From NCBI GenBank assembly GCA_903928275.1, contig CAIYQJ010000206.1, positions 1 to 33,831 of the forward strand: 33,831 bases of DNA, given 5' to 3'. Below, piece by piece: positions 1 through 18,040 of the stretch (position 1 is its first letter; each line of letters begins with the position of its first letter). This stretch comes from an uncultured Chloroflexota bacterium. GTDB taxonomy: Bacteria > Chloroflexota > Limnocylindria > Limnocylindrales > CSP1-4. Below the pieces are notes generated by a model, which did no database searches, was not told the DNA's origin, and saw only the letters and a program-made list of their open reading frames with translations. The position numbers were made by a program, and so were the translations under genes.

Positions 1-553
1 AGACGAACGTGTTGCCACACATCAGCGCGAGCGGGTCGATCCACATCGGGACCATCACCGGGAAGGTGAACGGCGTGATCCCGGCTGCGACGCCGAGCGG
101 CTGGCGGAGCGTGCGGGCGTCGACGCGGGTCGACACGTTCGGCGTGTTCATGCCGGCGAGCTGGGACGGCAGGCCGCAGGCGAACTCGACCGTCTCAAGG
201 CCGCGCATGACCTCCGCGAGAGCATCCGGGAACGTCTTGCCGTGGTCGCGGGTGATCAGCCGGGCCATCTCCTCGCGGTGCCGGTAGACCAGCTCACGGT
301 AGGCGAAGAAGATCCCGCTGCGGGCGATGAGCGGGGTGTCGCGCCAGGCCGGGAAGGCGGCCTTCGCGGCTGCGACGGCACGCCCCACCTCCGCCGCACC
401 GCCCCGGGGAACACGGGCGATGACCGATCCGGTGGCGGGGTTGTAGACGGGACCGGTCTCCTCGGGCAGCACCTCGACGGCCGCGCCGTCGATCCAATGG
501 GAGAAGATCGGCGGGGTCGCCGACGCGGTCGCGCTCGTGATCTGCGTCGCCAT
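1..553 (-). CDS. mmsA: CoA-acylating methylmalonate/malonate-semialdehyde dehydrogenase (ALDH family), 5' part only; runs off the window edge
   Basis: Not in the ORF track because there is no stop in the window. My translation from ATG 553 (AGGAGG RBS upstream): MATQITSATASATPPIFSHWIDG...VYNPATG...AFPAWRDTP...HGKTFPDA..EVMRGLETVEFACG...RQPLGVAAGITPFTFPVMVPMW...CGNTFV, typical of MmsA/IolA. Confidence 0.85.
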   Translation of the reverse strand, partial: MATQITSATASATPPIFSHWIDGAAVEVLPEETGPVYNPATGSVIARVPRGGAAEVGRAVAAAKAAFPAWRDTPLIARSGIFFAYRELVYRHREEMARLITRDHGKTFPDALAEVMRGLETVEFACGLPSQLAGMNTPNVSTRVDARTLRQPLGVAAGITPFTFPVMVPMWIDPLALMCGNTFV

Positions 554-596
554 GGTGGTTCCTCCTGGGGCCGGATCGGTGATCGTCGGGTCGTGG

Positions 597-1691
597 TTAG
601 GCGGGTCGCACGTCGGGGTTCGGCAGGACGATGTCCCGGACGACGCCCTCCACGTCGTGGAACGCCTTGATGAAGCCGCGCAGCGTGCGTGCCGTGGCGC
701 CGAACGCATCGAACTCGGCGGGCATCATGCCGTCGGGCTCGTACGCGCGGCGGAAGTCGGGGATGGCCTGGAGCTCTGCGACGATCGCCGGAGCGACCGG
801 GATGGCCATGCGCGCGGTGGGCTCCAGCCCGCTCGCGTTGAACCGGAGCTGCCAGGCGTGGGGGATCGTCATGCTGACCTCGCCGCCCACGAGCTCGGTC
901 CAGTGGAGATGGTGCCGGAAGGCGGCGGCGAGCAACCGGCTCCGTAAGCCGCGCTCGCGGAAGATCCCGTAGGCGCGCTTGAACGTGGCGATGCCGGCCC
1001 AGTCCAGGGTGCCCGGCGTCACCGACAGCAGGTCGCGCTCGGCGACGACCTTCAGCCAGTCGTCGAGGCGACCGATCATGAGCGCGACGGTCGGGGCGAG
1101 ACGGCCGGCCTCGCCACCCGCCGCCGCGAGTCGGACGAGGCCGCGCTCGATCGCCTCGGCGGCCGCGACGGCCTGCGGGACGCTGAAGCAGACGGTGGCG
1201 TTGACGTTGACGCCGAGCGCCGTGGCTTCCTCCATCGCGAGGACGCCGGCCGCGGTGACCGGGAACTTCACCTGGATGTTCGGCGCCAGGCGGGACAGCC
1301 CCACCCCCTGCGCCACCATCCGCTCGGCGTTCGGGTAGTTCGCCGGGTCCACCTGGAGCGATTGCCAGCCCTTGCGCCCGCCGCTCGCCGCGTGGATGCC
1401 CGCGAGGAGCTCGGCGCCACGGACGCCCATCTCTCCGACCACGGCCCACGCGATATCGACCTCGGTCCAGGTGGGGTTCGCCGCGGCCAGCTCGCGGACG
1501 CGCGGCACCCAGTACGCCCGGTCGCTCGTGATGACCTCGAGCACGATCGGGGGGTTCGACGTGGCGCCCACGGCGCCCCGCTCGATCGCGTACGCGAGCT
1601 CCGACACCGAGCAGGAATCGTTCCAGCAGTCGGTCGGGCCCAGCAGGGCGGTCCGCGTCAGCGGGCTGTCGATCAGCGTGGTCGGAGTCAT
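597..1691 (-). CDS. Transaldolase-family (class I Schiff-base aldolase) protein, paralog 1, 364 aa
   Basis: Motifs WNDS, GATSNP, QVKFP (Schiff-base Lys), NVNATVCFS and GRLDDW. Start placed at ATG 1691 (MTPTTL) because it matches the length of paralog 2. Confidence 0.9.
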   Translation of the reverse strand: MTPTTLIDSPLTRTALLGPTDCWNDSCSVSELAYAIERGAVGATSNPPIVLEVITSDRAYWVPRVRELAAANPTWTEVDIAWAVVGEMGVRGAELLAGIHAASGGRKGWQSLQVDPANYPNAERMVAQGVGLSRLAPNIQVKFPVTAAGVLAMEEATALGVNVNATVCFSVPQAVAAAEAIERGLVRLAAAGGEAGRLAPTVALMIGRLDDWLKVVAERDLLSVTPGTLDWAGIATFKRAYGIFRERGLRSRLLAAAFRHHLHWTELVGGEVSMTIPHAWQLRFNASGLEPTARMAIPVAPAIVAELQAIPDFRRAYEPDGMMPAEFDAFGATARTLRGFIKAFHDVEGVVRDIVLPNPDVRPA

Positions 1692-1750
1692 CGGGGCGGA
1701 CCTCAGGTGGGAGGCGCGGCGACGCCCGCGCCGGCTGCCACGTCGGCGAC

Positions 1751-1803
1751 TATCTAGATAATCGATAATCGATGAAAGTGCCGAACGGCCCTTGTCCGGA
1801 CAA
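1751..1803. promoter_or_regulatory. Divergent promoter/operator region with palindromes (candidate GntR operators)
   Basis: AT-rich island in GC-rich DNA: perfect palindrome TATCTAGATA (1751-1760), tandem ATCGAT (1761-1766, 1768-1773), GATAAT -10-like hexamers, and perfect palindrome TTGTCCGGACAA (1792-1803). It lies between divergent genes. Confidence 0.6.
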
Positions 1804-1901
1804 CGCCGGGACTCGACCTTGACCCCGGCGCCTCGCGGGCGGGAGAGGGGCCGGCGTGTCGACCAGGTCGGTCGTGCGCACACGGGGGAATGAGGTGTTC
1901 C

Positions 1902-2513
1902 GTGGCGGAAACAAAGAACACGATCCCGCTGTGGCTGGCGGTGGCGATCACGGTCTGCGTCAGCCTGCCGTTCAGCATCTGGCTCGGCCGGTACGCCCTG
2001 CCGATCTGGGCCGCGTTCATCGTGTGGGCCGAGTACTTCGCCCTGGGCGCCAAGCCCTCGGCGCTCAAGATCATGGTCCCGGCCTACTTCCTCGGCGTCG
2101 TGGCGGCCACCGTCATCATGACCGCGTACATGCTCCTCGCGCAGGCCCTCGGCAAGGGCGCCATCGTGACGATGGGCGACTGGTCCTTCACGTACAACGA
2201 CGCCGCCCTGTTCATCACGTGCTTCGTCGGGTTCTGTTTCTTCATCTACGCGATGAAGTGGTTCCCCGTCACGCAGACCGGGACGCTCCCGTTCTTCAAC
2301 GGCATCTCGATGATGCTCGCCGTCTTCTTCACCGGAGCGTTCATCAAGGCCGCGCCCGAAGGCATCGACGCGAACCTGCTGCCGCTCGTCGCCGGCGTCG
2401 GCGCGATGCTGGCCGGGCTCCTCGGCGCGTTCCTGGGCTGGTTCAATGTCGTGATCCTCTTCCCGCGCCCGGTCAAGGGAGCCGCGGAGGTGCGCTCGAC
2501 GGCCGTCGCCTGA
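1902..2513 (+). CDS. DUF1097-like integral membrane protein (putative permease)
   Basis: GTG 1902 after a GAGGTG RBS; about 6 hydrophobic segments; the W-A-A-F-I-V-W-A-E-Y-F pattern resembles DUF1097/YcdZ. Confidence 0.7.
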   Translation: MAETKNTIPLWLAVAITVCVSLPFSIWLGRYALPIWAAFIVWAEYFALGAKPSALKIMVPAYFLGVVAATVIMTAYMLLAQALGKGAIVTMGDWSFTYNDAALFITCFVGFCFFIYAMKWFPVTQTGTLPFFNGISMMLAVFFTGAFIKAAPEGIDANLLPLVAGVGAMLAGLLGAFLGWFNVVILFPRPVKGAAEVRSTAVA

Positions 2514-2593
2514 ACGGCGGCCGGCCCGACGTCATCCGCCGGCGCGCGCGGCGGGACATATCGAGACCGGGGCCGACCCGGAGGAGTGACTAC

Positions 2594-4351
2594 GTGGCAC
2601 TTGCGTTGAACGAAGAGATCCTCGGCCAGTTCCTGGGAGACGAGTCGTTTCCCGTCGAGTGGTCGTCCGAGACCGAGAAGCAGCTCTTCTGGGTCTACGA
2701 CGACCTCCACTGCCCCAAGCCGCTGAGCCCGATGTACGAGGATATCGGCGGCTGGTGGCTCTCCTGCGACCACATGTTCCGGCGCTTCGGCACGCCGTTC
2801 GCGACGGACTGGATCTACAAGAACGTCAATGGCTACCTGTACACGGCCGCGATCCCGGCCATGGCCGGCCTGGAGGTCGTGACCCAGGAGTACGACCTCG
2901 CGACCCGGCCGATCGTCCCGCAGGACGACGCGTACGTCGGGAAGATCGGCGCGTACCTGGGCACCGTCCTGCCCGTCTACGGCCTCAGGTTCACGGACTG
3001 GTGGCGGACCCGCTTCGTCCCCGAGATGCAGCGGAACTTCGACTACATCGAGGGGATGCTGGACCAGCGGGACCAGCTCTCCCTGGCCGAGGTGGCCGTC
3101 CTCCTCGAGGACGCCATCGACATGCACGACCGCCACTGGAAGATCCACTGGATGCTGAACTTCGCGCAGCTCAGCGCGACGCTGAACCTCCGGGCGGTCA
3201 TGGAGAAGACCCACGGCAAGGTGGACGAGGTCCTCCTGGGCCGGCTCCAGAGCTCGGCGGACGACCGGAACTGGGACAAGATCCGCGCCCTGTGGGAGAT
3301 GAAGGAAGAGGTGAAGGCCGACCCGGTCCTCGCCGCCGCCTTCGCCGCCCCGGCCGCGACCGAGATCCTGCCGGCGCTCCAGGCCAGCGAGCGCGGCCGC
3401 CACTTCATCGACGAGCGGATCGTGCCCTACCAGATGGAGTTCGGCTGGCACGCCGTCTGGAGCCACGAGTTCATCTTCCCGAGCTTCCGGGAAGACATGA
3501 TCCCGGTCGTCCAGCTCGTCCGCGACCAGTACGCGTCGGACTACGACTACCCCGCGAAGATCGCGGCGCTGCGTGCGGACATCGACGCCGCCGCGGCCGA
3601 GATCCTCGAGGGACTCTCCGGCGAGGCGCTCGAGGAGATGCGCGCCGCCAACGAGATCAACCTCAAGATGGCACCGCTCACCCCGGACCACCACTTCTAC
3701 ATCGACCAGGGCGCCAACGCCCACGTCCGCCTCGTCCTGATCGCCGTCGGCGAGAAGCTCGTGGAGAGGGGTGTCCTCGACGCCCCGGACGACGTCATCC
3801 TGTTCCGGTACAACGAGCTCCGGGAGTTCATCGGCGACCCGAAGTCCGAGGCGAACCCGGCCGGCATGGACGGGCGCGCGATCGTCGCGGCCGCCCGGGC
3901 CAGGCGCGCGGCAGCGGAGCTGATCCATCCGCGCGACTGGGTCGGCTCCGTCACCGCGAGCCAGCTCGCATTCCCGTACCTCAACCTGTGGGGCTTCCCC
4001 GACAAGTTCACGCGCTCGCAGCTGAAGGTCCACGGCCAGGTCAGCGGCATCGCCGGGTCGCCGGGCGTCGTCGAGGGCGTGGCGCGCGTCGTCATGTCCG
4101 AGGCCGAGTTCGACAGCCTCATGGAAGGCGAGATCCTCGTCTGCCAGATGACCAACCCGGCCTGGCAGGTCCTCTACGGCAAGATCAGTGCGGTCGTGAC
4201 CGATGCGGGCGGGACCGTCTCCCATCCCGCCGTGCTCGCCCGCGAGTACGGCATCCCGGCGGTCGTCGGCACGTCCGTCGGCACGTCGACCATCAAGACC
4301 GGCGACCGCCTCCGCGTGGACGGCACCACCGGTCTCGTCGAGATCCTGTAG
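2594..4351 (+). CDS. PEP-utilizing-enzyme family protein: large substrate-binding domain plus C-terminal phospho-His swivel domain (rifampin phosphotransferase / phenylphosphate synthase alpha-like), no ATP-grasp domain, 585 aa
   Basis: GTG 2594 after a GGAGGAG RBS. C-terminus GIAGSPGVVEGVARVV...GEILVCQMTNPAW...VTDAGGTVSHPAVLAREYGIPAVVG...GDRLRVDGTTG is the mobile His domain (His544, codon 4223-4225). Confidence 0.85.
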   Translation: MALALNEEILGQFLGDESFPVEWSSETEKQLFWVYDDLHCPKPLSPMYEDIGGWWLSCDHMFRRFGTPFATDWIYKNVNGYLYTAAIPAMAGLEVVTQEYDLATRPIVPQDDAYVGKIGAYLGTVLPVYGLRFTDWWRTRFVPEMQRNFDYIEGMLDQRDQLSLAEVAVLLEDAIDMHDRHWKIHWMLNFAQLSATLNLRAVMEKTHGKVDEVLLGRLQSSADDRNWDKIRALWEMKEEVKADPVLAAAFAAPAATEILPALQASERGRHFIDERIVPYQMEFGWHAVWSHEFIFPSFREDMIPVVQLVRDQYASDYDYPAKIAALRADIDAAAAEILEGLSGEALEEMRAANEINLKMAPLTPDHHFYIDQGANAHVRLVLIAVGEKLVERGVLDAPDDVILFRYNELREFIGDPKSEANPAGMDGRAIVAAARARRAAAELIHPRDWVGSVTASQLAFPYLNLWGFPDKFTRSQLKVHGQVSGIAGSPGVVEGVARVVMSEAEFDSLMEGEILVCQMTNPAWQVLYGKISAVVTDAGGTVSHPAVLAREYGIPAVVGTSVGTSTIKTGDRLRVDGTTGLVEIL

Positions 4352-4356
4352 GCCAG

Positions 4357-4388
4357 GAGCCGGCGGCCGCTCCGGCGGCCGCCGGCTC
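4357..4388. other. Intercistronic perfect hairpin (14-bp stem, 4-nt loop); probable mRNA stabiliser or attenuator
   Basis: GAGCCGGCGGCCGC-TCCG-GCGGCCGCCGGCTC directly after the stop at 4351; no U-tract follows. Confidence 0.65.
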
Positions 4389-4415
4389 GCAGTCTTCGGA
4401 GACACCCGACACACC

Positions 4416-5201
4416 ATGACCTCGATCACGCGCAGCGTCCTCAGCGACCAGGTGAAGGATCACCTCCTCCAGGCGATCCTCTCCGGTCTCTTCCCGCCGG
4501 GGTCCCGGATCGTCGAGACGCGGATCGCCCGCGAGCTCGGCGTCAGCCAGGCCCCGGTCCGGGAGGCGCTGCGCGACCTCGAGGCGATCGGTGTCGTGGA
4601 GATCACCGCGTTCCAGGGAGCCCGCGTCCGCCAGCCGGCCACCGCCGAGCTGGCCGAGGCCTACGGGATCCGGGCGGAGCTCGAGTCGCTCGGAGCGCGG
4701 CAGGCCGTGCCCAACCTCACCGATGTCGATGTCGAGGAGCTCCAGTCCTACATCGATGACATGCAGCGGGCGGCCTCCGCGGGTGACTGGATGGCGCAGG
4801 CGCACGTGGATGCCGCCTTCCACGCTCGCCTCATCGAGATCGCCGCGAACGCGACTCTCGAGCGGGTCTGGCGGTACCTCGAACCCACGTCACGCACCTA
4901 CATCACGGTCATCACCCACCGGATCGATCCCGCGGAGTCGGCGACCCTGCACCAGCCGATCCTCGACGCGTTGAGCCGGCGGGATGCGGACGCGGCGACC
5001 GACGCCGTGCGCCGCCATTTCGCGATCGCCGGAGAGATGTTCGCCGGCCTCTTCGACGGCGGACCCCGGATCGGAGACGGCGCCCGTGTCGGGCCCGCCG
5101 ACGGCGAGGACGCCCATCCGCACGAGCATCCGCGCCCTGCGCGCGGGCGCCTCGAGCGACCCGCGGGCGGGACGCGCCGCCGCAGTCAGGAGCACGCATG
5201 A
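4416..5201 (+). CDS. GntR family (FadR/FCD subfamily) transcriptional regulator
   Basis: ATG 4416; wHTH LSDQVKDHLLQAILSG.FPPGSRIVE..IARELGVSQAPVREALRDLEAIG; FCD motifs DAAFHARL...N and H.PILDAL; stop overlaps the next ATG (ATGA). Confidence 0.93.
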   Translation: MTSITRSVLSDQVKDHLLQAILSGLFPPGSRIVETRIARELGVSQAPVREALRDLEAIGVVEITAFQGARVRQPATAELAEAYGIRAELESLGARQAVPNLTDVDVEELQSYIDDMQRAASAGDWMAQAHVDAAFHARLIEIAANATLERVWRYLEPTSRTYITVITHRIDPAESATLHQPILDALSRRDADAATDAVRRHFAIAGEMFAGLFDGGPRIGDGARVGPADGEDAHPHEHPRPARGRLERPAGGTRRRSQEHA

Positions 5202-6085
5202 ACGAGCAGCCGCAGCTGTCCGAGGAGTTCTCCGCTGGCGCGGCCCACCTCCGCGTGGACGTCCATGGGGGCGAGCCCCGCGACCACGTCCTCGACGACC
5301 TGAGCTTCCTCAACTACCGACTCGCCGACGTCCGCATCTCGCCCGAGGTCACGCTGGCGGACCCGGACATCATCTGGAACCGGGACGGCGAGAAGGCGGT
5401 CACCTACGACGGCCGCACGGTGACGTTCACCGGCCCCTGGCCGGCCGGGCCGATCCAGAAGGTCATCGTCGCCGTGCTCGCATTGCGGATGGAGGCCGTG
5501 GGCCTGCACCCGTCCCACAGCGCGGCCGTGAACTACCGCGGGAAGACGTTCCTGTTCCTCGGCGGCGAATCCAACCACGGCAAGAGCATGGGCCTCATCG
5601 AGGCCGGGGTCCGCGGCGCGCTCCAGGTCGCGTCGGAGACCACGATCATCTCGGACGACGGCAGGGCGGTCGCGGGCTCCGCGGACACCTTCCTCGTGAA
5701 GCGCACCGAGGGCACGGAGCGGTCCGACAAGGCGGCCCCGAACAAGGGCGTGGAGAAGTTCTGGGGCGAGATGCCGACCTGGGGCCGGTATGCCGGCACA
5801 CCGAACATCGACCTCGTGATCGTCCCGGCGATCGACGGCAACTTCGACCCGGCGACGAACGAGCTCATCCCGTTCGAGCGCCAGTTCCAGATGCTCCACT
5901 CGCTCCAGAACTACTTCCTCACCAACGAGCTCCTCGCCCCGGGCTTCGTCATGCCGATGGTGGACGACGACACGCTCCGCGCGAAGCGTGCGATCTTCGT
6001 GGACCGCTTCTGCGAGCGGCCGTTCTACTTCATCCGCGCTGCGACCCCCCAGGTCCTCCTGGACGAGGTCGACAGGATCCTGTAG
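5198..6085 (+). CDS. Hypothetical P-loop protein, HPr-kinase-like
   Basis: LHPSHSAAVNYRGKTFLFLGGESNHGKS gives an HPrK-like H..AV...G..lf.G plus Walker A (GxxxxGKS); AGGAG RBS; codon bias fits a real gene. Confidence 0.65.
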   Translation: MNEQPQLSEEFSAGAAHLRVDVHGGEPRDHVLDDLSFLNYRLADVRISPEVTLADPDIIWNRDGEKAVTYDGRTVTFTGPWPAGPIQKVIVAVLALRMEAVGLHPSHSAAVNYRGKTFLFLGGESNHGKSMGLIEAGVRGALQVASETTIISDDGRAVAGSADTFLVKRTEGTERSDKAAPNKGVEKFWGEMPTWGRYAGTPNIDLVIVPAIDGNFDPATNELIPFERQFQMLHSLQNYFLTNELLAPGFVMPMVDDDTLRAKRAIFVDRFCERPFYFIRAATPQVLLDEVDRIL

Positions 6086-6105
6086 AGACAGGAGGCGCCG
6101 GAGCC

Positions 6106-6972
6106 ATGCACACGTTCGCCTACGTCCGGCCGACGACGGTCGCCGAGGCCGTCGCCATCCTCGACGCCGGTGGTCGCGACGCGCGCGTCCTTGCCGGCGG
6201 CACGGACCTCGTGATCCGGCTGCGCGACGGCTCGGCGACGCCGACGACCGTCATCGACCTCAAGCGGATCGCCGACCTGCGGCCGGGCGTCCGCGAGGAG
6301 GGCGGCCGGCTCACGATCTCCGCCACGACGGTCATGACCGACGTGGCGGCCGATCCGCTCGTGCGACGCCACTTCCCGGCGCTCGCCGAGGCGGCGGCGG
6401 TCGTCGGCTCGGTCCAGATCCGGAACCGGGCCACGCTCGGCGGCAACGTCTGCAACGCGTCGCCGGCCGCCGACACCGCCACGCCGCTGCTCGTCTTCGA
6501 CGCCACGGTCGTCGCCGAAGGGCCGGGCGGGACGCGGCGCATCGCGATCGACGACTTCTTCGTGCGCTCGGGCGTGACAACCCTTCAACGAGGCGAGCTC
6601 GTCACGGCGATCGAGCTGCCGATCCCGGCCGTTGCGACCGGCTCCGCGCACGTGCGGCGAACGCGCCGACGCGGCCACGACCTCGCGTCGGTGACCCTGT
6701 CCGTCCGCGTGGACGCCTTGGGCGTGACCCGTTTCGCCTACGGCAGCGTGGGCCCGCGCCCCGTGCTCGCCGTGGACGACACCGGCGTGCTCGCGGACCC
6801 GGCCGTTCCGGCCGAGGCGAGGTCCGCGATCCTCGAACGGATGTTCGCGGACGCCAGCCCGTCCCCGCGCTCGATGCGGGCGAGCCCCGCGTACCGCCTG
6901 GCCATGCTCCGCGTCCTCGGCGCCCGGGCGCTCCGCAGCGCGATCGAGCAGCTGGCGGCAGGGAGCGACTGA
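6106..6972 (+). CDS. Xanthine dehydrogenase family FAD-binding (medium) subunit
   Basis: ATG 6106 after an AGGAGG RBS; FAYVRPTT, LAGGTDL, VGSVQIRNRATLGGNVCNASPAAD. Confidence 0.92.
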   Translation: MHTFAYVRPTTVAEAVAILDAGGRDARVLAGGTDLVIRLRDGSATPTTVIDLKRIADLRPGVREEGGRLTISATTVMTDVAADPLVRRHFPALAEAAAVVGSVQIRNRATLGGNVCNASPAADTATPLLVFDATVVAEGPGGTRRIAIDDFFVRSGVTTLQRGELVTAIELPIPAVATGSAHVRRTRRRGHDLASVTLSVRVDALGVTRFAYGSVGPRPVLAVDDTGVLADPAVPAEARSAILERMFADASPSPRSMRASPAYRLAMLRVLGARALRSAIEQLAAGSD

Positions 6973-6973
6973 C

Positions 6974-7453: not shown

Positions 7454-9696
7454 GCGCGACGATCATCGGGACGTCGCCGAACCGGGTCGGCGGCATCGGC
7501 CGGGTCACCGGCAGCCAGCAGTACGTCGCGGACCTCCGGCTGGCCGACGTCCTCGAGGCGCGGCTCGTCACCCTCGACTGCGCGCGGGCCCGGATCATCT
7601 CCATCGACGCGAGCGCCGCACTCGCGCTCCCGGGCGTCCGGCTCGTCATGACCGCCGCCGACCTGCCCCAGCCGGTGCCGCGCTTCGGGCCGCAGCTCGA
7701 GGACCGCCCCGTCATCGCCGTCGGCGAGACGAAGTACCACGGCGACCCCGTGGCGATCGTCGCTGCCGAGACGAAGGACGCGGCGGACGCGGCGGCCGCG
7801 CTCGTCCGCGTCGAGTACGAGGAGCTGCCCGCGGTCTTCACGCTCGCGGCGGCGCTCGATCCCGCCGCGCCGCTCGTGCAGGACCCGGCGCTCCGGCCCG
7901 GCGACCGGCTCGCATCGACCAACGTGCTGCGCGAGCACCCCATCGGCTGGGGCGACGTGGATGCCGCGGTGGCGGACGTCGTCGTCGAGCACACGTACAC
8001 CTTCCCGATGGTGACCCACTTCGCGATCGAGCCGCACGCGTACATCGCGGCGCCGGACGGCGACGGCATCGCCGTGTGGAGCACGATCCAGCATCCGAAC
8101 TGGCTCCAGAAGGTGATCGCGAAGGTCCTGGGCATGCCGCTCGCGAAGGTGCGGGTCTTCGCCCCGGATCCCGGCGGCGGCTTCGGCGGCAAGCAGCACG
8201 CCAAGTACGAGCCCCTCGTCGCGCTCGCCGCGATACGGGCCGGTCGCCCGGTGCGCCTCGTCCTCAGTCTCGAAGAGACCTTCCAGGCGGTCCGCCGGGC
8301 ATCGTGCGAGGTCCGGGTCCGGACCGGCGTGAACCGTGACGGCGCCCTCGTCTTCGAGGACATCGCGGCCGACTACCTCATCGGCGCCTACGCGGACATC
8401 GCGGACCGGGTGGTGGGCAAGGGCAGCTACCCGGCCGCCGGGCCGTACACGGTGCCCAACGTCCGGATCCTCGCCCGGAGCGTGCTCTCGCACACGGTGC
8501 CGTCGACCGCGTTCCGCGGCTTCGGCAACCCGCAGGTCAACTGGGCGGTGGAGTCCAACCTCGACGAGGCCGCGCTGGCGATCGGGATGGACCGCCTCGA
8601 GATCCGCCTGCGGAACATCGCGCACAGGGGCGACGCCTTCATCCCGTTCGACACGCCGGCTGACGGCGAATGGTCGCAGACCGTGACGCGCGCGGCCGAG
8701 CTGATCGGCTGGGGTTCGCCGCTGCCGCCGGGCCGCGGCCGCGGGATCGCGCTGGGCATCAAGTCGGGTCCCACAACGGGCCTCTCGTACTCCACGGTCC
8801 GCCTGCTCGGCGACGGGAGCGTCATCGTGTTCGCGGGGACGTCCGACATGGGCCAGGGAGCCCGCACCGTCTTCGCGCAGATCGCCGCGCAGGAGCTGGG
8901 CGCGCCCCTCGACTGGGTCACCGTCGTCATGGGCGACACGGCGATCGTGCCCTACGACCAGCAGACGTCGGCGAGCCGCTCCACGGTCCTCATGGGCAAC
9001 TCGGTGCTCATGGCCTGTCGGTCGATCCAGGCGCAGCTGCGGACGATGGCCGCCCGTCTGCACGCCGTGGACGAGGCGCTGGTCGGGGTGGACCGCGGAG
9101 TCGTGCACCTGCCGGATCGCGACCTCTCCGTCATCGACGTGCTCAAGCCCGGGCTGGGCCGGCTCGGCGGAGAGCTGACCGGCAACGGCGAGGTCCGCAA
9201 GGACGCGGACCCCTCGCATCCACTGTCCGGCGCACCCGCCTTCTTCGAGTTCAACTGCACCGCGATCGAGGCCGAGGTGGACCGCGAGACCGGCGACGTC
9301 ACGATCGTCCGGCACGTCACAGTGTCGGACGTCGGCAGGGCGCTCAACCCGCTCCAGGTCCGCACGCAGGACGAGGGCGCCGCGATCCAGGGCCTCGGGC
9401 ACACGCTCATGGAGCACTACATCTTCGACGAGGTGGGGCGGATCCGGAACCTCGGCGCGATCGACTACCGGATCCCGACGAGCATGGACCTGCCCCTCGA
9501 CCTGGTCAGCGAGACGATCGAGAACGCCGACGGCCCGGGGCCGTACGGCTCAAAGGGCATGAGCGAGGGCGCGCTCCTGTGCGTCGCGGCGGCCGTGGGC
9601 GCTGCGGTCCGCGAAGCGATCAGGGTGCCGATCCGCGACCTTCCACTGACGCCCGAGCGCGTCTGGCGGGCCCTGCAGGAGCGGGAGACCGCGTGA
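7450..9696 (+). CDS. Xanthine dehydrogenase family molybdopterin-binding (large) subunit
   Basis: ATG 7450 overlaps the upstream stop (ATGA); PGGGFGGK, AFRGFG, DMGQG, SASRS, GPYGSKGMSE. Confidence 0.93.
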   Translation: MSATIIGTSPNRVGGIGRVTGSQQYVADLRLADVLEARLVTLDCARARIISIDASAALALPGVRLVMTAADLPQPVPRFGPQLEDRPVIAVGETKYHGDPVAIVAAETKDAADAAAALVRVEYEELPAVFTLAAALDPAAPLVQDPALRPGDRLASTNVLREHPIGWGDVDAAVADVVVEHTYTFPMVTHFAIEPHAYIAAPDGDGIAVWSTIQHPNWLQKVIAKVLGMPLAKVRVFAPDPGGGFGGKQHAKYEPLVALAAIRAGRPVRLVLSLEETFQAVRRASCEVRVRTGVNRDGALVFEDIAADYLIGAYADIADRVVGKGSYPAAGPYTVPNVRILARSVLSHTVPSTAFRGFGNPQVNWAVESNLDEAALAIGMDRLEIRLRNIAHRGDAFIPFDTPADGEWSQTVTRAAELIGWGSPLPPGRGRGIALGIKSGPTTGLSYSTVRLLGDGSVIVFAGTSDMGQGARTVFAQIAAQELGAPLDWVTVVMGDTAIVPYDQQTSASRSTVLMGNSVLMACRSIQAQLRTMAARLHAVDEALVGVDRGVVHLPDRDLSVIDVLKPGLGRLGGELTGNGEVRKDADPSHPLSGAPAFFEFNCTAIEAEVDRETGDVTIVRHVTVSDVGRALNPLQVRTQDEGAAIQGLGHTLMEHYIFDEVGRIRNLGAIDYRIPTSMDLPLDLVSETIENADGPGPYGSKGMSEGALLCVAAAVGAAVREAIRVPIRDLPLTPERVWRALQERETA

Positions 9697-9715
9697 GCCA
9701 CCTGGAGGAGGCGCG

Positions 9716-10606
9716 ATGACCATGCCGTCCGACATCGGGCCGATCGGCGGGCTGCCGCCCGAGCAGGTGGTGCGAGCGGCCGGCCTCGTCCGCACCGGCC
9801 GGATGATCTCCCTGGCCGCCACGCGCTATCCCGGGATGCCGCTGTTCCCCGGCCACCCGCCGTTCCAGGTCCTCAACTACCGGACGCCGCGCGGGATCCG
9901 GGTGGCCGGCGCGCAGCCGTGGGGTCCGATCAACGACGTCTTCCTCGGCTACATGGCCGAGTACGTCATGGCGACGTCGCACTCGGGCGCGCACATGGAT
10001 GCCCTGGCGCACATGACGATCGGCGAGGACATGCACTGGTACGGCGGCGGCAACGCCGACGCGCACCTGTCGGACTTCGGGCCGCTGCACCTGGACGCCT
10101 CCACGATGCCGCCGTTCTTCACGCGGGGCGTCCTGATCGACGCTGCCGGCCACCGCGGCGTGGACTGCCTGCCGGCGGGCTCGCCGATCGACGCCGCCGA
10201 GATGGACGCGATCTGCGCGGCGCAGGGCGTGACGGTCGGGAGATGGGACGTCGTCGTCATCCGCACCGGCTATGCCGGGCTCTACCCGGACGCCGAGCGG
10301 ATGGCCGCGCACAGGACGCCGGGGCCGGACATCTCGGCCGCGCGCTGGCTCCTCGAGCGCGGCGTCGTTGCGACCGGGACCGACACCGAGACCTACGAGG
10401 TCCAACCCGCGCCGGATCCCGGTCCGGAGGGCAACCCGCAGCCCGTGCATGCCGCCCTCCTCATCGAGAACGGCGTCTACGTCATGGAGAGCCTCGACAT
10501 GGAGGAGCTCGCCCGCGAGCGCGCCTACGAGTTCCTGTTCGTGGCCCTCCCCGTGAAGATCCGCGGGGCGACCGGCTCGATGGTCGATCCCGTGGCCGTC
10601 ATCTGA
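9716..10606 (+). CDS. Cyclase family (kynurenine formamidase / isatin hydrolase-like) metal-dependent amidohydrolase
   Basis: HSGAHMDALAH metal motif, RGVLID, IRTG, G.DT, PVH..LL...G.Y.ME, GATGS.V.P; GGAGG RBS. Confidence 0.9.
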   Translation: MTMPSDIGPIGGLPPEQVVRAAGLVRTGRMISLAATRYPGMPLFPGHPPFQVLNYRTPRGIRVAGAQPWGPINDVFLGYMAEYVMATSHSGAHMDALAHMTIGEDMHWYGGGNADAHLSDFGPLHLDASTMPPFFTRGVLIDAAGHRGVDCLPAGSPIDAAEMDAICAAQGVTVGRWDVVVIRTGYAGLYPDAERMAAHRTPGPDISAARWLLERGVVATGTDTETYEVQPAPDPGPEGNPQPVHAALLIENGVYVMESLDMEELARERAYEFLFVALPVKIRGATGSMVDPVAVI

Positions 10607-10709
10607 CCGGCTGGTCACCACCGCGCCCCGACCTCCGGGACAACCAGTCGGCGCCTACCCCGCGTCGCAGGCCCCGCATCGCCATCCATCGCACGCCGAG
10701 GAAGCACAC

Positions 10710-11921
10710 ATGGCCGGTACGATCCTCATCATCGGGACGCTCGACACGAAGGCGGTCGAGTTCGCCTACATCCGCGACCTGATCGCGGCGCGCGGCCACG
10801 CCACGATCCTGCTCGATGCCGGCGTCGATGAGCCGCGGCTGACCCCGGACGTCGGCGCCGCTCGGGTCGCGACGGCGGGCGGGAGCTCGATCGAGGCGCT
10901 CCGCGCGGCCCACGACCGCGCCACCGCCCTCGAGGTCATGTGCGCGGGCGTCCGCGTCGTGGCCATCGAGCTGCTCGCCGAGGGCAGGTTCGACGGCGTG
11001 ATCAGCCTAGGGGGCTCCGGCGGCACCGCGATCGCCACGTCCGCGATGAAGGTGCTGCCGGTCGGCATGCCGAAGGTCATGGTGTCGACCATGGCCTCGG
11101 GCGACGTCTCCGCGTACGTGGACGTGAAGGACATCACGATGATGTACTCCGTCGTCGACGTCGCCGGGCTCAACCGCCTCTCCCGGCGGATCCTTGCGAA
11201 CGCGGCGGGCGCGGTGTGCGGGATGGTCGAGCAGGAGATCCCGCCGGCCGAGGACCACCCGCTCCTGGCCGCCACGATGTTCGGCGTCACGACGCCGTGC
11301 GTCACCCGCGTCCGCGAGACGCTCGAGGCGGCCGGCTACGAGGTCCTCGTCTTCCATGCTGTGGGCAGCGGCGGTCGCGCGATGGAGGCCCTCATCGCCG
11401 ACGGCTTCATCGCCGGCGTCGCGGACGTCACGACGACGGAGTGGTGCGACGAGCTCATCGGGGGCGTCCTGTCCGCCGGGCCGGATCGCCTCGATGCGGC
11501 GGCCCGGGCGGGCATCCCGCAGGTCGTGTCGGTCGGCGCGCTCGACATGGCGAACTTCGGTGCGATCGACACGGTCCCGGTGAAGTTCGCGGACCGCGAG
11601 CTCTACAGGCACAACCCCCAGGTCACCCTGATGCGCACGACACCCGCGGAGAACGCCGAGCTCGGGCGCATCGTCGCGACGAAGCTCAACGCCTCGACCG
11701 GCCCCACCGTGCTCTTCCTGCCGCTGCGGGGCGTGAGCATGATCGACGCCGAAGGGATGCCGTTCTGGTCGCCCGAAGCGGACGCCGCCCTGTTCGACGC
11801 CATCCGGACGACCGTCGATCCGGCCAGGGTCGAGCTCGTGGAGCTCGACATGCACGTCAACGACCCGGCGTTCGCCGACGCGATGACCGATCGCCTTCTG
11901 GCGATGCTGACCGCGCGCTGA
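10710..11921 (+). CDS. Tm-1-like ATP-binding domain protein (UPF0261)
   Basis: [75 protein letters not shown]. Confidence 0.92.
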
Positions 11922-11956
11922 TCCACCGTCCTGTCACAGACGAAGGAGATCGAGCC

Positions 11957-12793
11957 ATGCCGTTCATCCCGCGCGCCGAGGTCACCCGGCGGCTCCGCGC
12001 CCAGATCGAGGCAGGCGTCCCGATCGTCGGTTGCGGCGCCGGCACCGGCATCTCGGCCAAGATGGCGGAGGCCGGCGGGGCCGACCTGATGATCATCTAC
12101 AACTCCGGGCGCTATCGGATGGCGGGCCGCGGCTCGCTCGCCGGGCTCCTGGCCTACGGCGACGCCAACGGGATCGTCGTCGAGATGGCCTCCGAGGTGC
12201 TGCCCGTCGTGAAGGACACGCCGGTCCTCGCCGGCATCAACGGGACCGACCCGTTCCGCCTCATGCGGGTCTTCCTCCGCCAGCTCAAGGAGATGGGGTT
12301 CGACGGGGTCCAGAACTTCCCCACCGTCGGCCTCATCGACGGCGACTTCCGGAAGAACATCGAAGCCACCGGGATGGGCTACGACAGGGAGATCGAGGCG
12401 ATCCACATCGCCTCCGAGCTCGACATGTTCTGCTCGCCGTACGTCTTCGACCCCGACCAGGCGACCGAGATGGCCAGGGCCGGTGCGGACCAGCTGGTGG
12501 CCCACGTCGGACTGACGACCGCGGGCTCCATCGGCGCAGGCGTCGCGTTCACCCTCGACCAGGCGATCGACAAGGTGATGGCGATCGCCGAGGCGGGCCG
12601 CAGGGTCCGCAAGGACATGATCGTCATCTGCCACGGCGGTCCGTTCGACGAGCCCGAACAGGTCGGCAAGGCGCTCCTGCGGATGCCCGGCGTGAACGGC
12701 TTCTTCGGCGCGTCGAGCATCGAGCGGCTCCCCACCGAGCGCGCCATCCGCGGCCAGGTCCAGGAGTTCAAGAAGCTCGCCATCGCGCGCTGA
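11957..12793 (+). CDS. Phosphoenolpyruvate-hydrolase-like TIM-barrel protein (homolog of the Tm-1 C-terminal domain)
   Basis: ATG 11957 after an AAGGAG RBS; [64 protein letters not shown]. Confidence 0.92.
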
Positions 12794-12920
12794 TGGCGGC
12801 GCGGCGGGGCGGCGTCGTTCGGGCGGCCCGAGTGTTCCGGGTCGTATCCTTCCACTTCGACGCCGTCCCGGCCGCCACCGACCGTCCCCCGCGGCCACGC
12901 CGCTGACTGACAGGACCGCC

Positions 12921-13868
12921 ATGGCCGCACTCTACGTCCCGCCGATCCAGATCCCGGACGGGTTCACGGTCTGGTCCGCAACCGACTGGCACGGGCAGCT
13001 GCGCGCTGCCGACCGGCTCCTCCATGCCGCGGGCCTGACAGACGGCGCGGACCGCTGGACGGCGCCGCCTGCGACGGCGCTCGTCGTGACCGGCGACGTG
13101 GTCGATCGGGGGCCCGACACCGTGGGGCTCGTCCGTCGGCTGGCGTCGCTTCGCGCGCAGGCGACCCTCGCCGGCGGGTGCGTGGCACTCCTGTGGGGCA
13201 ACCACGAGGCCCAGGTCCTCGGCGGTCTCGGCGGCGACGCGCGGATCTTCCGGGCGCTCATGACGTTCGGCGGCGGGGCGACGCTCCTGTCCGTCGGGAT
13301 GCGGCCCGACGAGTGGGAGGGCCGGTCGCCCGCCGCGATCGCCGCCCGGGTGGACGAGCTGGCTCCCGACCTCCTGCCCACGCTGTGGACCTTCGCGCCG
13401 TACGCGCGCTGGCGGGACGTCCTGTTCGTCCACGGGGGTCCGGTCCCCTTCTGTGAGCTCGACCGGTTCGAGCGCAGCGTCGACCGGCTGTGGATCCGCG
13501 ACGCGTTCTTCGCTTCGCCCGACCCCTTCCCGTCGGCCGCCGCGTGGACGTCGTACCGGAAGGCCGGCCTGGGCCAGGTCGTGTTCGGTCACACGCCGGT
13601 GGAGCGGCCCACGTGGAGCCACGCCGGACGCGCGCTCAACCTCGATACGTGGCGTGGCCAGCACGTCACGCTGGCGCGCCTCGGGATGGGGCAGGAGCTC
13701 CGCGAGGCGGTCTTCCTCGCGGAGCCGGCCGAGCCGCGCGCGATGGCCGATGCGCCGGTCACGTCCGAGGAGATCCGCCTGTTCGACACCGACCTCCCGG
13801 CTATCGTCGACGCATGGGTGGCCGGCGAGCGGCGATCCCCGGATGTCCCGGGACACAATGGAACATGA
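12921..13868 (+). CDS. Calcineurin-like metallophosphoesterase (PPP/ApaH-like)
   Basis: DWHG, GDVVDRG, GNHE, VHGG, FGHTP and LDT motifs. Confidence 0.88.
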   Translation: MAALYVPPIQIPDGFTVWSATDWHGQLRAADRLLHAAGLTDGADRWTAPPATALVVTGDVVDRGPDTVGLVRRLASLRAQATLAGGCVALLWGNHEAQVLGGLGGDARIFRALMTFGGGATLLSVGMRPDEWEGRSPAAIAARVDELAPDLLPTLWTFAPYARWRDVLFVHGGPVPFCELDRFERSVDRLWIRDAFFASPDPFPSAAAWTSYRKAGLGQVVFGHTPVERPTWSHAGRALNLDTWRGQHVTLARLGMGQELREAVFLAEPAEPRAMADAPVTSEEIRLFDTDLPAIVDAWVAGERRSPDVPGHNGT

Positions 13869-13878
13869 GGCGAGACGC

Positions 13879-14973
13879 GTGAGCACCACCGATCCGATCA
13901 GTCCCCTGCTCCGGATGACGCGCGAGACGCCCACCGGCTACTGGAACGATTCGTGCGCGGTGGACGAGCTGGCGTACGCGGTCGCGCGCGGCGCGACGGG
14001 CGCGACGTCGAACCCGAGCATCGTCCTCGATGTCATGAAGAGCGAGCGAGCCCACTGGGTCCCGCGTGTCCGCGACCTCGCGGCGGAGAACCCGACATGG
14101 ACCGAGGTGGAGCTCACCTGGGCGATCATCGAGGAGATGGCGGTCCGAGGGGCCGCCGTGCTCGAGCCGGTCTTCGTGGCGAACGGCGGGCGGCGCGGCC
14201 GCCTCTCGCTCCAGACGAACCCGGCGAACCATCGCGACCCCGCCCGGATGGTGGAGCAGGGCGTCCGCTTCGCGGGCCTCGCCCCGAACATGCAGGTGAA
14301 GTTCCCGGCGACCGCGGCGGGCATCGCCGCGATCGAGGAAGCGACCTTCCGCGGCGTGAACATCAACGCGACGGTGAGCTTCACCGTCCCCCAGGCGCTC
14401 GCCGCGGCCGAGGCGGTGGAGCGGGGCCTGGGCCGTCGCGCCGCGGCCGGCGAGGACGTCTCGTCGATGACGCCGATCGTCACGATCATGGTCGGACGGC
14501 TCGACGACTGGATGAAGGTCCTCGTCGAGCGTGATGGCCTCGCCGTCGATCCCGACGCGACGAACTGGGCGGGCATCGCGGCCTTCAAGCGCGCCTACGG
14601 GATCTTCCGCGAGCGCGGCTATCGGTCCCGGCTGCTCGCGGCCGCGTATCGCCATCGCCTCCACTGGACCGAGCTCGTCGGGGGCGAGGTCTCGATGACG
14701 CTCCCCTACGCGTGGCAGGTCCGCTTCAACGCGAGCGGCATCGCGCCGGAGCCGCGGATGGACATCCCGGTGGACCCCGCCTTCCTCGACGACCTCCTGG
14801 AGCGGATCCCGGACTTCCGCCGCGCCTACGAGCCCGCCGGGATGACGCCGGACGAATTCGAGGGCTTCGGGGCGTCGGCGCGCACCCTGCGCGCGTTCAT
14901 CAGGTCCTACCACGACCTCCAGGCCGCCATCCGCGACATCTCCCTGCCCGACCCTGACGCGCGGCCCGCCTGA
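13879..14973 (+). CDS. Transaldolase-family protein, paralog 2, 364 aa
   Basis: GTG 13879 (alternative ATG 13858); WNDS, GATSNP, QVKFP, NINATVSFT, GRLDDW; colinear with paralog 1. Confidence 0.9.
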   Translation: MSTTDPISPLLRMTRETPTGYWNDSCAVDELAYAVARGATGATSNPSIVLDVMKSERAHWVPRVRDLAAENPTWTEVELTWAIIEEMAVRGAAVLEPVFVANGGRRGRLSLQTNPANHRDPARMVEQGVRFAGLAPNMQVKFPATAAGIAAIEEATFRGVNINATVSFTVPQALAAAEAVERGLGRRAAAGEDVSSMTPIVTIMVGRLDDWMKVLVERDGLAVDPDATNWAGIAAFKRAYGIFRERGYRSRLLAAAYRHRLHWTELVGGEVSMTLPYAWQVRFNASGIAPEPRMDIPVDPAFLDDLLERIPDFRRAYEPAGMTPDEFEGFGASARTLRAFIRSYHDLQAAIRDISLPDPDARPA

Positions 14974-14978
14974 CGCGC

Positions 14979-15007
14979 GGTCCGCTTCCGTGACTGGTCC
15001 GCTTCCG
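14979..15007. repeat. 12-bp direct repeat GGTCCGCTTCCG x2 between convergent genes
   Basis: Copies at 14979-14990 and 14996-15007, each preceded by TGAC within 1-4 nt. Confidence 0.7.
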
Positions 15008-15008
15008 C

Positions 15009-16166: not shown

Positions 16167-16183
16167 GGGTGCGGCGCCGGGGG

Positions 16184-17961: not shown

Positions 17962-18040
17962 CCGTGCACGGTGCGGCCCGCCAGCCGGATCGGACAGGGC
18001 CATGTGGAACGAATGGCGCACGGCGGTCGGGTCGGGCAGC

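Follow-up and report, generated by a model that had tools for sequence, protein, structure and literature searches.

Catabolism that begins with a phosphorylation is known from a handful of cases, those of phenol, cresol, acetovanillone and 3-hydroxypyridine. Here we set beside these systems a gene island that takes up positions 1-14973 of a 33,831-nucleotide contig (CAIYQJ010000206.1; the window, below, is this whole stretch) from an uncultured Chloroflexota bacterium. In passages of Dexter et al. (PMC12167813), PpsAB, CreHI and HpeHI are described as two-component kinases that phosphorylate phenols. Their substrate-binding component, exemplified by HpeH, joins a substrate domain like that of rifampin phosphotransferase (RPH) to a swivel domain with the motif T/SxxGGxxxH, and HpeH, CreH and PpsA are about 45% identical to one another (PMC12167813). 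For the 3-hydroxypyridine (3hpd) cluster of Ensifer adhaerens HP1, excerpts of a preprint (bioRxiv 10.1101/2020.01.08.898148) report that in vivo activity of a hydroxylase of the xanthine dehydrogenase (XDH) family needs a neighbouring phosphoenolpyruvate (PEP)-utilising protein and a protein like pyruvate phosphate dikinase (PPDK). Three other precedents, each taken from part of a published text, bear on single proteins of the island: MarK, a UPF0261 protein of Novosphingobium aromaticivorans, uses ATP to phosphorylate acetovanillone and other aromatics (PMC12624787); UPF0261 is fused to a PEP_hydrolase barrel in plant Tm-1-like proteins (PMC5028733); and dihydrophloroglucinol cyclohydrolase (DPGC), a cyclase-family enzyme, opens a carbocyclic beta-diketone ring (PMC10470551).

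An earlier note on this DNA had proposed that the genes in 1-14973 form an undescribed catabolic system. The proposal holds up well, as the neighbourhood recurs in 80 related loci, 37 of 81 genomes in the family carry three of its marker genes while another 37 carry none of them, and an operator is shared. Nor did the family libraries and literature that we searched yield a published pathway matching the island, in line with the note's own failure to name one; a term search of part of the text of a 2026 Limnocylindria genomics paper likewise returned nothing on it. Judged from sequence, the data support one conserved, co-occurring and co-regulated catabolic system. With moderate confidence, we read it as serving the phosphorylation-initiated breakdown of a hydroxylated cyclic compound, with a phosphotransfer kernel and a periphery made up of a molybdenum (Mo) enzyme and ring-opening enzymes.

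Conservation and co-regulation of the island

Related loci were fetched with P0001, a 295-residue P-loop protein encoded at 5198-6085 (+), and the window proteins were searched by tblastn in the best 80 of them, some of which are short. Besides P0001 (80/80 loci), these loci encode the FAD and FeS subunits of an XDH-family enzyme (79/80 each), a GntR regulator (78/80), P0002, which carries the mobile domain of PEP utilisers (74/80), the Mo subunit (72/80), a cyclase-family hydrolase (58/80), UPF0261 and transaldolase (TAL)-like proteins (36/80 each), a PEP_hydrolase-like barrel (30/80) and an aldehyde dehydrogenase (16/80). Clustering of adjacent open reading frames (ORFs), named with Pfam, brought out further recurrent neighbours: a dikinase of about 720 residues with PPDK_N and PEP-utiliser domains (58/80), a zinc-dependent alcohol dehydrogenase (Zn-ADH; 57/80), a short-chain dehydrogenase/reductase (SDR; 46/80), an ABC ATPase and a metallo-beta-lactamase (MBL)-fold protein (31/80 each), a small cupin (28/80) and the N and C halves of a split transketolase (TK; 27/80 and 21/80). 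Branched-chain-type ABC permeases also recur nearby. The neighbourhood is kept while the gene order is shuffled: P0002 usually has UPF0261 and PEP_hydrolase upstream of it, and the ADH and dikinase come after the cyclase.

The same association is seen at the level of whole genomes. Among 81 genomes of the family, this one included, P0001 was found in 37 and P0002 and the Mo subunit in 42 each; all three occur together in 37 genomes, one or two of them in seven and none in 37, so every genome with P0001 also has the other two. The seven genomes with a partial set are split into 220-420 contigs and are 66-90% complete. In a sample of the phylum, a strong P0001 match was present in 14 of 401 genomes and a weak, partial match in eight. 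The island, present in some genomes of the family and absent from others, therefore counts as an accessory trait in Limnocylindria-type Chloroflexota, uncultured bacteria of lake and soil.

In this genome the island is larger than its first description. The first 73 nucleotides of the window are the reverse complement of positions 1-73 of a second contig, C326, at 71 of 73 bases, and the two mismatches, at window positions 37 and 66, are sites where public contigs covering the left end of the window, drawn from three runs, have the letters of C326. The aldehyde dehydrogenase frame, which the window edge cuts (2-709, -; N-terminal part), can be read without interruption through the join as far as its stop at C326:1056. 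Because of this overlap, the shared variant letters, the open frame and synteny, the leftward operon very probably runs on for at least eight more co-directional genes on C326, and the leftward unit of two genes given in the earlier note has to be revised. After the C-terminal part of the dehydrogenase (C326 1-1056), that contig encodes, all on the same strand, the SDR (1085-1936), the MBL-fold protein (1954-2844), an ATP-grasp/His dikinase of 713 residues (2899-5040), the small cupin (5154-5522), TK-N (5500-6420), TK-C (6417-7370) and the Zn-ADH (7367-8521); the recurrent neighbours of the relatives' loci are thus all present there except for the ABC transporter. The island would then comprise about 27 kb in two divergent operons with some 25 genes, about twice the size first reported, of which the window holds the right half and the promoter; the ATP-grasp donor lies outside it.

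The divergent promoter carries a candidate operator. The only AT-rich spot in window positions 1-17200 is at 1740-1770, and a promoter scan found a promoter-like site at 1735-1762 that overlaps a palindrome at 1755-1772. The 10-mer core of this palindrome occurs twice in the 3.46-Mb genome, the two copies overlapping and both at this promoter, and 131 times in the loci of 71 of the 80 relatives, against about 0.17 expected from base composition. Sites in the relatives average to a perfect 18-bp palindrome, TCGATAATCGATTATCGA, to which the window has one match, at 1755-1772 with two mismatches, and C326 none at up to three mismatches. Nearly all of the relatives' sites fall between cluster genes (TAL|UPF0261 17, ABC|other 12, TAL|P0002 11 and cupin|P0002 8, among others). 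In the relatives the operator flanks kernel, TAL, cupin/TK, SDR and ABC operons. It is most likely bound by the island's own dimeric GntR/FCD regulator (4416-5201, +; PF00392 and PF07729). The gene for this protein lies inside the rightward operon and not at the promoter, which qualifies the layout "under one GntR" of the earlier note.

Synteny, phylogenetic profile and operator counts together put the arrangement far outside what chance would give. A mosaic of unrelated operons, bringing a Mo dehydrogenase, a Tm-1-like pair and pentose-phosphate-type enzymes together with no common pathway, would be in keeping with the variable gene order and with the fact that UPF0261, PEP_hydrolase, a phosphoesterase and a second TAL gene stand downstream of the cyclase almost only here (for UPF0261, in 2 of the 80 loci); TAL and transketolase are also families of central metabolism. 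We nonetheless regard it as highly unlikely, given that the neighbourhood survives shuffling, that the phylogenetic profile is near perfect, that the same operator flanks the various operons in relatives, that the genome has a separate canonical transaldolase (246 bits, against about 120 for the cluster copies), and that contigs from public runs bridge 10339-12293 and 12814-14307.

The proposed phosphotransfer kernel

P0002 (2594-4351, +) had been listed as an "orphan PEP-utiliser" with no reaction. Pfam recognises only its C-terminal swivel (PEP-utilizers) domain, at residues 511-580, and matches nothing in its first 480 residues at E up to 1, while residues ~140-585 match the PRK08296, PigC, RedH and RPH models, below all NCBIfam cut-offs. 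When an AlphaFold 2 (AF2) model of the protein (pLDDT 83.8) was searched with Foldseek, the best match was RPH (E 3e-18, TMq 0.61-0.63, ~600 columns), which was also the sole family to cover most of the model; PEP synthase (PEPS), PPDK and EI align with the swivel domain only. Assignment as a PEP synthase was rejected on this ground, only the last ~100 residues matching these three enzymes. The swivel motif of P0002, TDAGGTVSH at 536-544, fits the published T/SxxGGxxxH, with His544 in last place; T536, G539, G540 and H544 are invariant in 15 sequences, four distant ones among them, and T541 and S543 fall outside the conserved alignment columns. The orphan status is therefore outdated: by predicted fold and swivel motif P0002 belongs with the HpeHI/CreHI/PpsAB dikinases, as a putative HpeH/PpsA/CreH-like component that combines substrate binding and the swivel His in a two-component small-molecule dikinase.

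The 713-residue dikinase on C326 is the candidate donor. It passes the short PPDK model PRK05878 (515 bits against a cut-off of 456, residues 18-466) and has a swivel motif of its own, TSSGGLASH. Its last 245 residues (C326 4303-5040), in which Pfam finds no match at E up to 1, take the place of the PEP/pyruvate-binding barrel of true PPDK and PEPS. PPDK_N occurs in this genome only in open frames of 731 and 950 residues; a stand-alone I component with PPDK_N alone (~340-400 residues) is not found in this genome and does occur in distant loci.

Such loci were sought in metagenomes, and the best 19 seen have P0001 homologues that are 34-46% identical and a G+C content of 28-52%. A P0002 homologue lies within 3.1 kb of P0001 in 12 of the 19, and directly upstream of it in nine. 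The seven loci without P0002 comprise five that are no longer than 3.7 kb, one truncated on the side in question, and L094, which spans 8 kb and lacks the gene. Tungsten-type aldehyde:ferredoxin oxidoreductase (AOR) is encoded in 11 loci, a cupin directly downstream in ten, an isopropylmalate-synthase-like HMGL protein in eight, a stand-alone PPDK_N protein in seven, UPF0261 in four, a DMSO-reductase-type Mo enzyme with an FeS subunit in two and a DUF1097 homologue in one. When all three XDH subunits were used as protein queries, with E up to 1e-8, no XDH-family subunit turned up in any of the 19. From these counts, therefore, the conserved unit consists of P0002, P0001, cupin and ATP-grasp donor, often with UPF0261, next to an oxidoreductase that contains Mo or W; in the aerobic high-GC lineage this oxidoreductase is of the XDH type. 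In the two loci with the DMSO-reductase-family molybdopterin enzyme (L092, 11074-13746; L093, 2685-5372), it follows directly after the P0001 homologue with its 4Fe-4S subunit; this is the enzyme type of phenol transhydroxylases and hydroxylases.

P0001, a protein of predicted PEPCK fold

P0001 is the best conserved protein of the island (73-90% identical across relatives, against 50-64% for GntR), and yet it has no match in Pfam, even at E up to 1, or in NCBIfam. At E up to 1e-3, 177 representatives were found among 1.84 billion, many of them fragments. Homologues are called "hypothetical protein" in their source records, and we took the automatic ESM Atlas name, "Phosphoenolpyruvate carboxykinase family protein", as a lead and not as evidence. 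An AF2 model (pLDDT 88.2) matched ATP-dependent PEP carboxykinase (ATP-PEPCK) in Foldseek at E 3e-7, and HPr kinase/phosphorylase (HPrK/P) at lower significance (1ko7, E 2.4e-4; 1knx, E 7e-4; 1kkl, E 1.5e-3), in the kinase domain only and with TMq 0.24-0.29. VIA-align superposed 248 of 295 residues on ATP-PEPCK across both domains (Z 12.4, rmsd 4.7 A), residues 1-295 aligning with PEPCK residues ~92-452 or 111-463 at 12-16% identity. As the alignment starts only at PEPCK residue ~92-111, the N-terminal substrate-binding part of PEPCK appears to be missing from P0001. The P-loop reads GESNHGKS, in which G123, E124, N126, G128 and K129 are invariant, as are H107 and E147 outside it. P0001 matches neither PEPCK_ATP (PF01293), which has no match anywhere in the genome, nor Hpr_kinase_C (PF07475), which has none in the whole genome at E 1e-3. 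On the strength of its modelled structure, P0001 is a member of a new protein family of PEPCK fold. The eight weak matches from the phylum sample all come from one other Chloroflexota genus (E 1e-5 to 3e-4), span P0001 residues ~90-180 within frames of 354-404 residues, and may represent a remote sister family.

Two competing roles can be proposed for this protein. PEPS and PPDK have regulatory proteins, and P0001 might likewise serve regulation instead of metabolism, as a protein kinase/phosphorylase by which the swivel domain of either P0002 or the dikinase is turned on and off, in parallel to HPrK/P acting on HPr. The presence of HPrK/P among its fold matches (E 2e-4), a P-loop region (G-E-S-x-x-G-K-S...E147) much like the HPrK/P motif, and its place directly downstream of P0002 in nine of the 19 distant loci would suit such a role. 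The regulatory Thr of PEPS and PPDK, however, stands two residues before the catalytic His according to a passage of PMC12167813, and this position is Val542 in P0002 and Ala in the C326 dikinase. No Ser or Thr beside the catalytic His of P0002 is conserved, and the whole length of P0001 follows both domains of PEPCK, HPrK/P covering far less. The idea of a swivel regulator is weakened for these reasons; the exceptional conservation of P0001 and the empty result of the Hpr_kinase_C model in this genome also tell against it, and we consider it unlikely.

The competing reading, that P0001 is an enzyme acting on a phospho-intermediate, would fit its modelled fold, its very high conservation and the fact that the island has no other carboxylase. 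A more specific version of it, argued by analogy with PEPCK, which forms oxaloacetate from PEP, is an aryl- or enol-phosphate carboxykinase. In this version the HpeH-like dikinase would turn a phenol or enol into its phosphate ester, and P0001 would then hand the phosphate on to ADP as the released phenolate or enolate attacks CO2. This is doubtful, and we give it little weight. If true, phenols or ketones would be carboxylated in a new manner that recovers ATP, and the reaction would stand in for the carboxylases, UbiD-type or biotin-dependent, on which known phosphorylation-initiated pathways rely; it would be widespread among anaerobes and among the Chloroflexota of soil and fresh water. 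In our literature searches, no publication connected a PEPCK- or HPrK-like protein to dikinases of the HpeHI/CreHI/PpsAB type.

The UPF0261 and PEP_hydrolase-like pair

The UPF0261 protein (10710-11921, +) is recognised by PF06792 (210 bits), PF23189 (322 bits) and NF002674 (579 bits against a cut-off of 335), and is nearer to Tm-1 (291 bits) than to MarK (9mpy, 244 bits). Its Lys14 aligns with the ATP-site K16 of MarK and with K20 of Tm-1, and its H216 and H301 correspond to the MarK substrate-site residues H219 and H304, whereas H348, F283 and I285 of MarK are replaced by I345, M280 and N282. A MarK/Tm-1-like ATP-dependent kinase activity is thus plausible, with a substrate that is probably other than that of MarK. 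When the earlier note counted UPF0261 among the families with no assigned bacterial reaction, it had been overtaken by the work on MarK, shown in part of that account to be an ATP-dependent aromatic kinase (PMC12624787). The partner protein, a PEP_hydrolase-like TIM barrel (11957-12793, +; PF09370, 400 bits), matches 2p10 (Mll9387) at E 8e-102. Of the 36 relatives with UPF0261, 34 have the pair upstream, at 48-60% identity to that of the window.

The Mo enzyme, the cyclase and the nature of the substrate

Three genes encode the XDH-family enzyme: the FAD subunit (6106-6972, +; PF00941 and PF03450), the 2x[2Fe-2S] subunit (6974-7453, +; PF01799 and PF00111) and the molybdopterin (Mo) subunit (7450-9696, +; PF02738, PF20256 and PF01315). 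The nearest solved relative of the Mo subunit is the alpha subunit of 4-hydroxybenzoyl-CoA reductase (1rm6_A, 329 bits), followed by quinoline 2-oxidoreductase (235 bits), and it stays below every NCBIfam cut-off. The scores against 4-hydroxybenzoyl-CoA reductase fall short for alpha (429.5 against 994.55 bits), beta (113.3 against 404.55) and gamma (161.3 against 257.8), and likewise for xanthine dehydrogenase XdhA (416 against 780), XdhB (185 against 310) and XdhC (177 against 217). True 4-hydroxybenzoyl-CoA reductase, xanthine dehydrogenase and CO dehydrogenase were all rejected, every score being under the curated cut-off. The beta (FAD) subunit of 4-hydroxybenzoyl-CoA reductase has a Cys-rich [4Fe-4S] insertion; as the 288-residue FAD subunit of the island has a single Cys, it lacks that extra cluster. 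In one relative (G410:C2:79933-82038) the orthologous Mo subunit crosses one in-frame TGA, which could be a pseudogene, an error or recoding.

The cyclase-family metal-dependent hydrolase (9716-10606, +; PF04199, 84 bits) is the candidate ring opener. It keeps the His/Asp metal motif HSGAHMDALAH, and its best match in the PDB is the uncharacterised 5ibz, isatin hydrolases following only at E 2e-3. The Zn-ADH is nearest to the models of scyllo-inosose 3-dehydrogenase and threonine dehydrogenase, all below cut-off. The inositol route of Thermotoga uses IolM, and the Thermotoga-type IolM model NF041097 is not reached by the Zn-ADH (206.9 against 450 bits). For the SDR, the nearest models are gluconate-5-dehydrogenase and KduD, again below cut-off; an identity as phloroglucinol reductase was dropped, these two being the best matches in both PDB and NCBIfam.

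The earlier note had arranged such parts into an ordered route that began with hydroxylation of a heterocycle and went on to amide hydrolysis of the ring. The data do not support this order as it was given: DPGC shows that the cyclase family opens carbocycles as well, distant loci carry AOR or DMSO-reductase-type enzymes, and the dehydrogenases resemble those of sugar acids or cyclitols. An N-heteroaromatic substrate (a hydroxypyridine, a pyridone or a pterin-like compound), with XDH-type hydroxylation assisted by the PEP utiliser and amide ring opening by the cyclase, has in its favour the three-subunit XDH-family enzyme, the amide-hydrolysing isatin hydrolases as the characterised cyclase-family matches in the PDB, and the 3hpd precedent, which, in excerpts of the preprint (bioRxiv 10.1101/2020.01.08.898148), pairs a 3-hydroxypyridine dehydrogenase with the PEP-utilising and PPDK-like proteins it needs and has a GntR gene. 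The isatin hydrolase match is weak, however, the substrate of the nearest solved Mo subunit is a phenolic CoA ester and not a heterocycle, and the ADH and SDR resemble enzymes of cyclitols and sugar acids. No amidase, deaminase, 2,5-dihydroxypyridine dioxygenase or SRPBCC subunit is seen among the annotated cluster genes, and an XDH relative was found in none of the 19 distant kernel loci, which have AOR in 11 cases and a DMSO-reductase-type enzyme in two. The island is less like an N-heterocycle route, though the 3hpd precedent keeps that idea alive as an improbable alternative. A polyphenol or a cyclitol-like carbocycle would be the favoured substrate.

Other genes of the island and of the window

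The two TAL/fructose-6-phosphate aldolase (FSA)-family proteins, A (597-1691, -, with its ATG at 1691; PF00923, 121 bits) and B (13843-14973, +; PF00923), are inverted paralogues with 65-66% protein identity. With the NCBIfam transaldolase models, whose cut-off is 367 bits, they reach at best 92.8 and 106.3 bits. Both keep the Schiff-base Lys (VKFP.T motif), which upholds the Schiff-base chemistry assigned to them in the earlier note; since transaldolase cut-offs are not reached and yet this Lys is kept, the two are predicted to be TAL/FSA-superfamily members, probable Schiff-base aldolases, of another specificity than transaldolase. The canonical SLEV motif reads SLQV in them, with Gln for the Glu of the same genome's canonical transaldolase, which we take to be the FSA state. 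In one contig from a public run, positions 946 and 14620 are joined on opposite strands, between these paralogues, probably an assembly-graph crossing at a shared stretch.

As far as it is covered by the window, the MMSDH-like CoA-acylating aldehyde dehydrogenase (Pfam Aldedh, 1.5e-39) scores 204 bits with the methylmalonate-semialdehyde dehydrogenase (MMSDH) model TIGR01722, whose cut-off is 448.5. The metallophosphoesterase (12921-13868, +; PF00149) keeps its DxH, GDxxD and GNHE metal motifs, in agreement with the phosphoester hydrolysis proposed for it. The DUF1097-like membrane protein (1890-2513, +), a candidate transporter, has at least four hydrophobic segments and a borderline match to PF06496 (24.7 bits against a cut-off of 24.6); a homologue with 41% identity is present in distant locus L103.

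The window is contig C206 of an assembly in 476 contigs (3.46 Mb, 92% complete), has a G+C content of 71%, and finds its nearest protein relatives in metagenome-assembled genomes of Candidatus Limnocylindrales, Chloroflexota and uncultured Chloroflexia. Coding frames were chosen by third-position GC and genes named with Pfam and NCBIfam, and these together with the start codons bear out 12 rightward genes (1890-14973) and two leftward ones (from 1691 to the window edge) of the families named earlier, round a divergent intergenic region of 198 nt. The rightward operon ends at 14973, as the next gene (15009-16535) is convergent. A check of start codons located three overlapping junctions (5198/5201, 7450/7453 and 13843/13868) and one abutment (6972/6974); contrary to what had been suggested, there is no overlap between UPF0261 and PEP_hydrolase, the latter having a single in-frame start, at 11957. 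Most of the stretch is present in four lake-water DNA runs of one study, whose contigs are short and of low depth, bridging some junctions and in no case the whole stretch; short "joints" with side 21 in these contigs were treated as assembly-graph noise.

Beyond the island, the window encodes a URO-D/MtaA-CmuA-like protein of up to 508 residues, of which only the C-terminal half matches (15009-16535, -), a 1049-residue Oxidored_FMN and Pyr_redox_2 protein with ~330 unassigned N-terminal residues (17167-20316, +) and an amidohydrolase (20398-21510, -). These may form a separate demethylation or reduction system; a URO-D homologue is found near the island in just 2 of the 80 relatives. Further on lies a sugar- or cyclitol-type catabolic cluster (23014-33815, -) with a ROK kinase, an ABC transporter (permease, ATPase and periplasmic binding protein), SIS_2, two GFO/IDH/MocA oxidoreductases, a DeoC/LacD aldolase and a xylose-isomerase-like TIM barrel, whose inositol-like flavour stands beside the IolM-like ADH of the island. 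Candidate ORFs of 399 and 318 residues (21507-22706, -, and 23979-24935, -) have no Pfam match. Past the island genes, C326 (8552-11960) goes on to encode a CinA-like protein that has a MoCF_biosynth domain, the genome's canonical transaldolase, which scores 246 bits, and a ComB-type 2-phosphosulfolactate phosphatase.

A possible route and its weak points

From families, folds, motifs, synteny, co-occurrence and operator we infer each reaction, the order of steps and the class of substrate in the following scheme. The ATP-grasp and swivel-His dikinase (a PpsB-like stand-alone protein in distant relatives) would use ATP, and its phosphoryl group would pass to His544 of P0002, which would phosphorylate a phenolic or enolic hydroxyl of a small cyclic substrate. 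The UPF0261 kinase and its TIM-barrel partner could carry out a second ATP-dependent phosphorylation, and P0001 a further nucleotide-dependent phosphoryl transfer on the phospho-intermediate. The three-subunit Mo enzyme would oxidise or hydroxylate the ring or an aldehyde, and the cyclase-family hydrolase would open the ring. The Zn-ADH, SDR, cupin, split transketolase and two FSA-like aldolases might then process the open chain, with malonate or methylmalonate semialdehyde as the end product, to be converted to acyl-CoA by the MMSDH-type enzyme, and with phosphate removed by phosphoesterases. In short, the parts point to a ring that is phosphorylated, oxidised and opened, followed by handling of keto- and hydroxy-acids down to a C3 semialdehyde.

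Several observations weigh against a phosphorylation-initiated route of this kind. The relatives are kin, and their counts overstate independence. The join to C326 is drawn from a 73-nt overlap with two mismatches plus synteny. The metallophosphoesterase (5/80 loci, three of these at 36-38% identity) and DUF1097 (2/80) are not conserved parts, and the resemblances of the ADH and SDR lie under curated cut-offs. The UPF0261 pair of the window may be a paralogue with another role, because of the upstream position and 48-60% identity of the pair in 34 of 36 relatives. Finally, given the AOR in distant loci, the kernel could serve different pathways in different lineages.

If phosphorylation-initiated breakdown is the right reading, the island would extend phosphorylation-first logic to abundant uncultured bacteria of lake and soil and link it to a Mo enzyme and a ring hydrolase. 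The island also reveals a small family of predicted PEPCK fold that travels with the dikinase across distant lineages, and gives the UPF0261/TIM-barrel (Tm-1-like) pair, which is still poorly understood, a defined bacterial context. Identification of the substrate would add a route by which hydroxylated rings of plant or humic origin are turned over in fresh water, and could bring to light a new phosphoryl-transfer or carboxylation reaction.

Comparison with described systems

Set against PpsAB (phenol), CreHI (4-cresol) and HpeHI/AcvAB (acetovanillone), as described in parts of PMC12167813 and PMC9618137, P0002 would have the same architecture as HpeH, the island also encodes an ATP-grasp donor, and phosphoesterases are present as they are in the Cre, Acv and Hpe pathways. 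It differs in that its donor is fused to a swivel-His domain of its own and to an unassigned 245-residue C-terminal part, in that P0002 is accompanied by a PEPCK-fold protein and a cupin, and in that no UbiD-type or biotin-dependent carboxylase and no P450 is found among its annotated genes.

P0001 appears to share with ATP-dependent PEPCK the two-domain P-loop fold and the His...GxxxxGK[ST] arrangement, but at 295 residues, against ~520-540, it is without the first ~110 and the last ~70 residues; with HPrK/P it would share the PEPCK-like P-loop kinase fold, over a part of its length only. The UPF0261 protein has the N and C domains of MarK, the ATP-site Lys and two substrate-site His, and is without equivalents of H348, F283 and I285. 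It is closer to tomato Tm-1 than to MarK and, as in the plant fusion, is paired with a PEP_hydrolase-like barrel.

With the 3hpd cluster of Ensifer adhaerens HP1, as far as the preprint text goes (bioRxiv 10.1101/2020.01.08.898148), the island has in common an XDH-family hydroxylase, a PEP utiliser, a PPDK-like protein and a GntR regulator. Neither a separate SRPBCC subunit (HpdA is four-component) nor maleamate-pathway genes are seen in the window, on C326 or among the frequent neighbours, and P0001, the cyclase, UPF0261, TAL, TK and MMSDH are not named among the 3hpd genes in that text, from which, and not from a gene table, the comparison was drawn. The phloroglucinol pathway, made up of phloroglucinol reductase (PGR) and DPGC among others (PMC10470551, in part), shares with the island an SDR, a cyclase-family hydrolase, a class-I-type aldolase and a dehydrogenase of the malonate-semialdehyde dehydrogenase (MSDH) type. 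Its Collinsella variant uses an aldolase of EC 4.1.2.4 with MSDH, according to part of a review (PMC13039779), whereas the island aldolase is of the TAL/FSA family; the island SDR is nearer to gluconate-5-dehydrogenase and KduD than to PGR; and the island is without a BKACE enzyme, as the phloroglucinol pathway is without the Mo enzyme and the kinases that the island sets beside its ring hydrolase.

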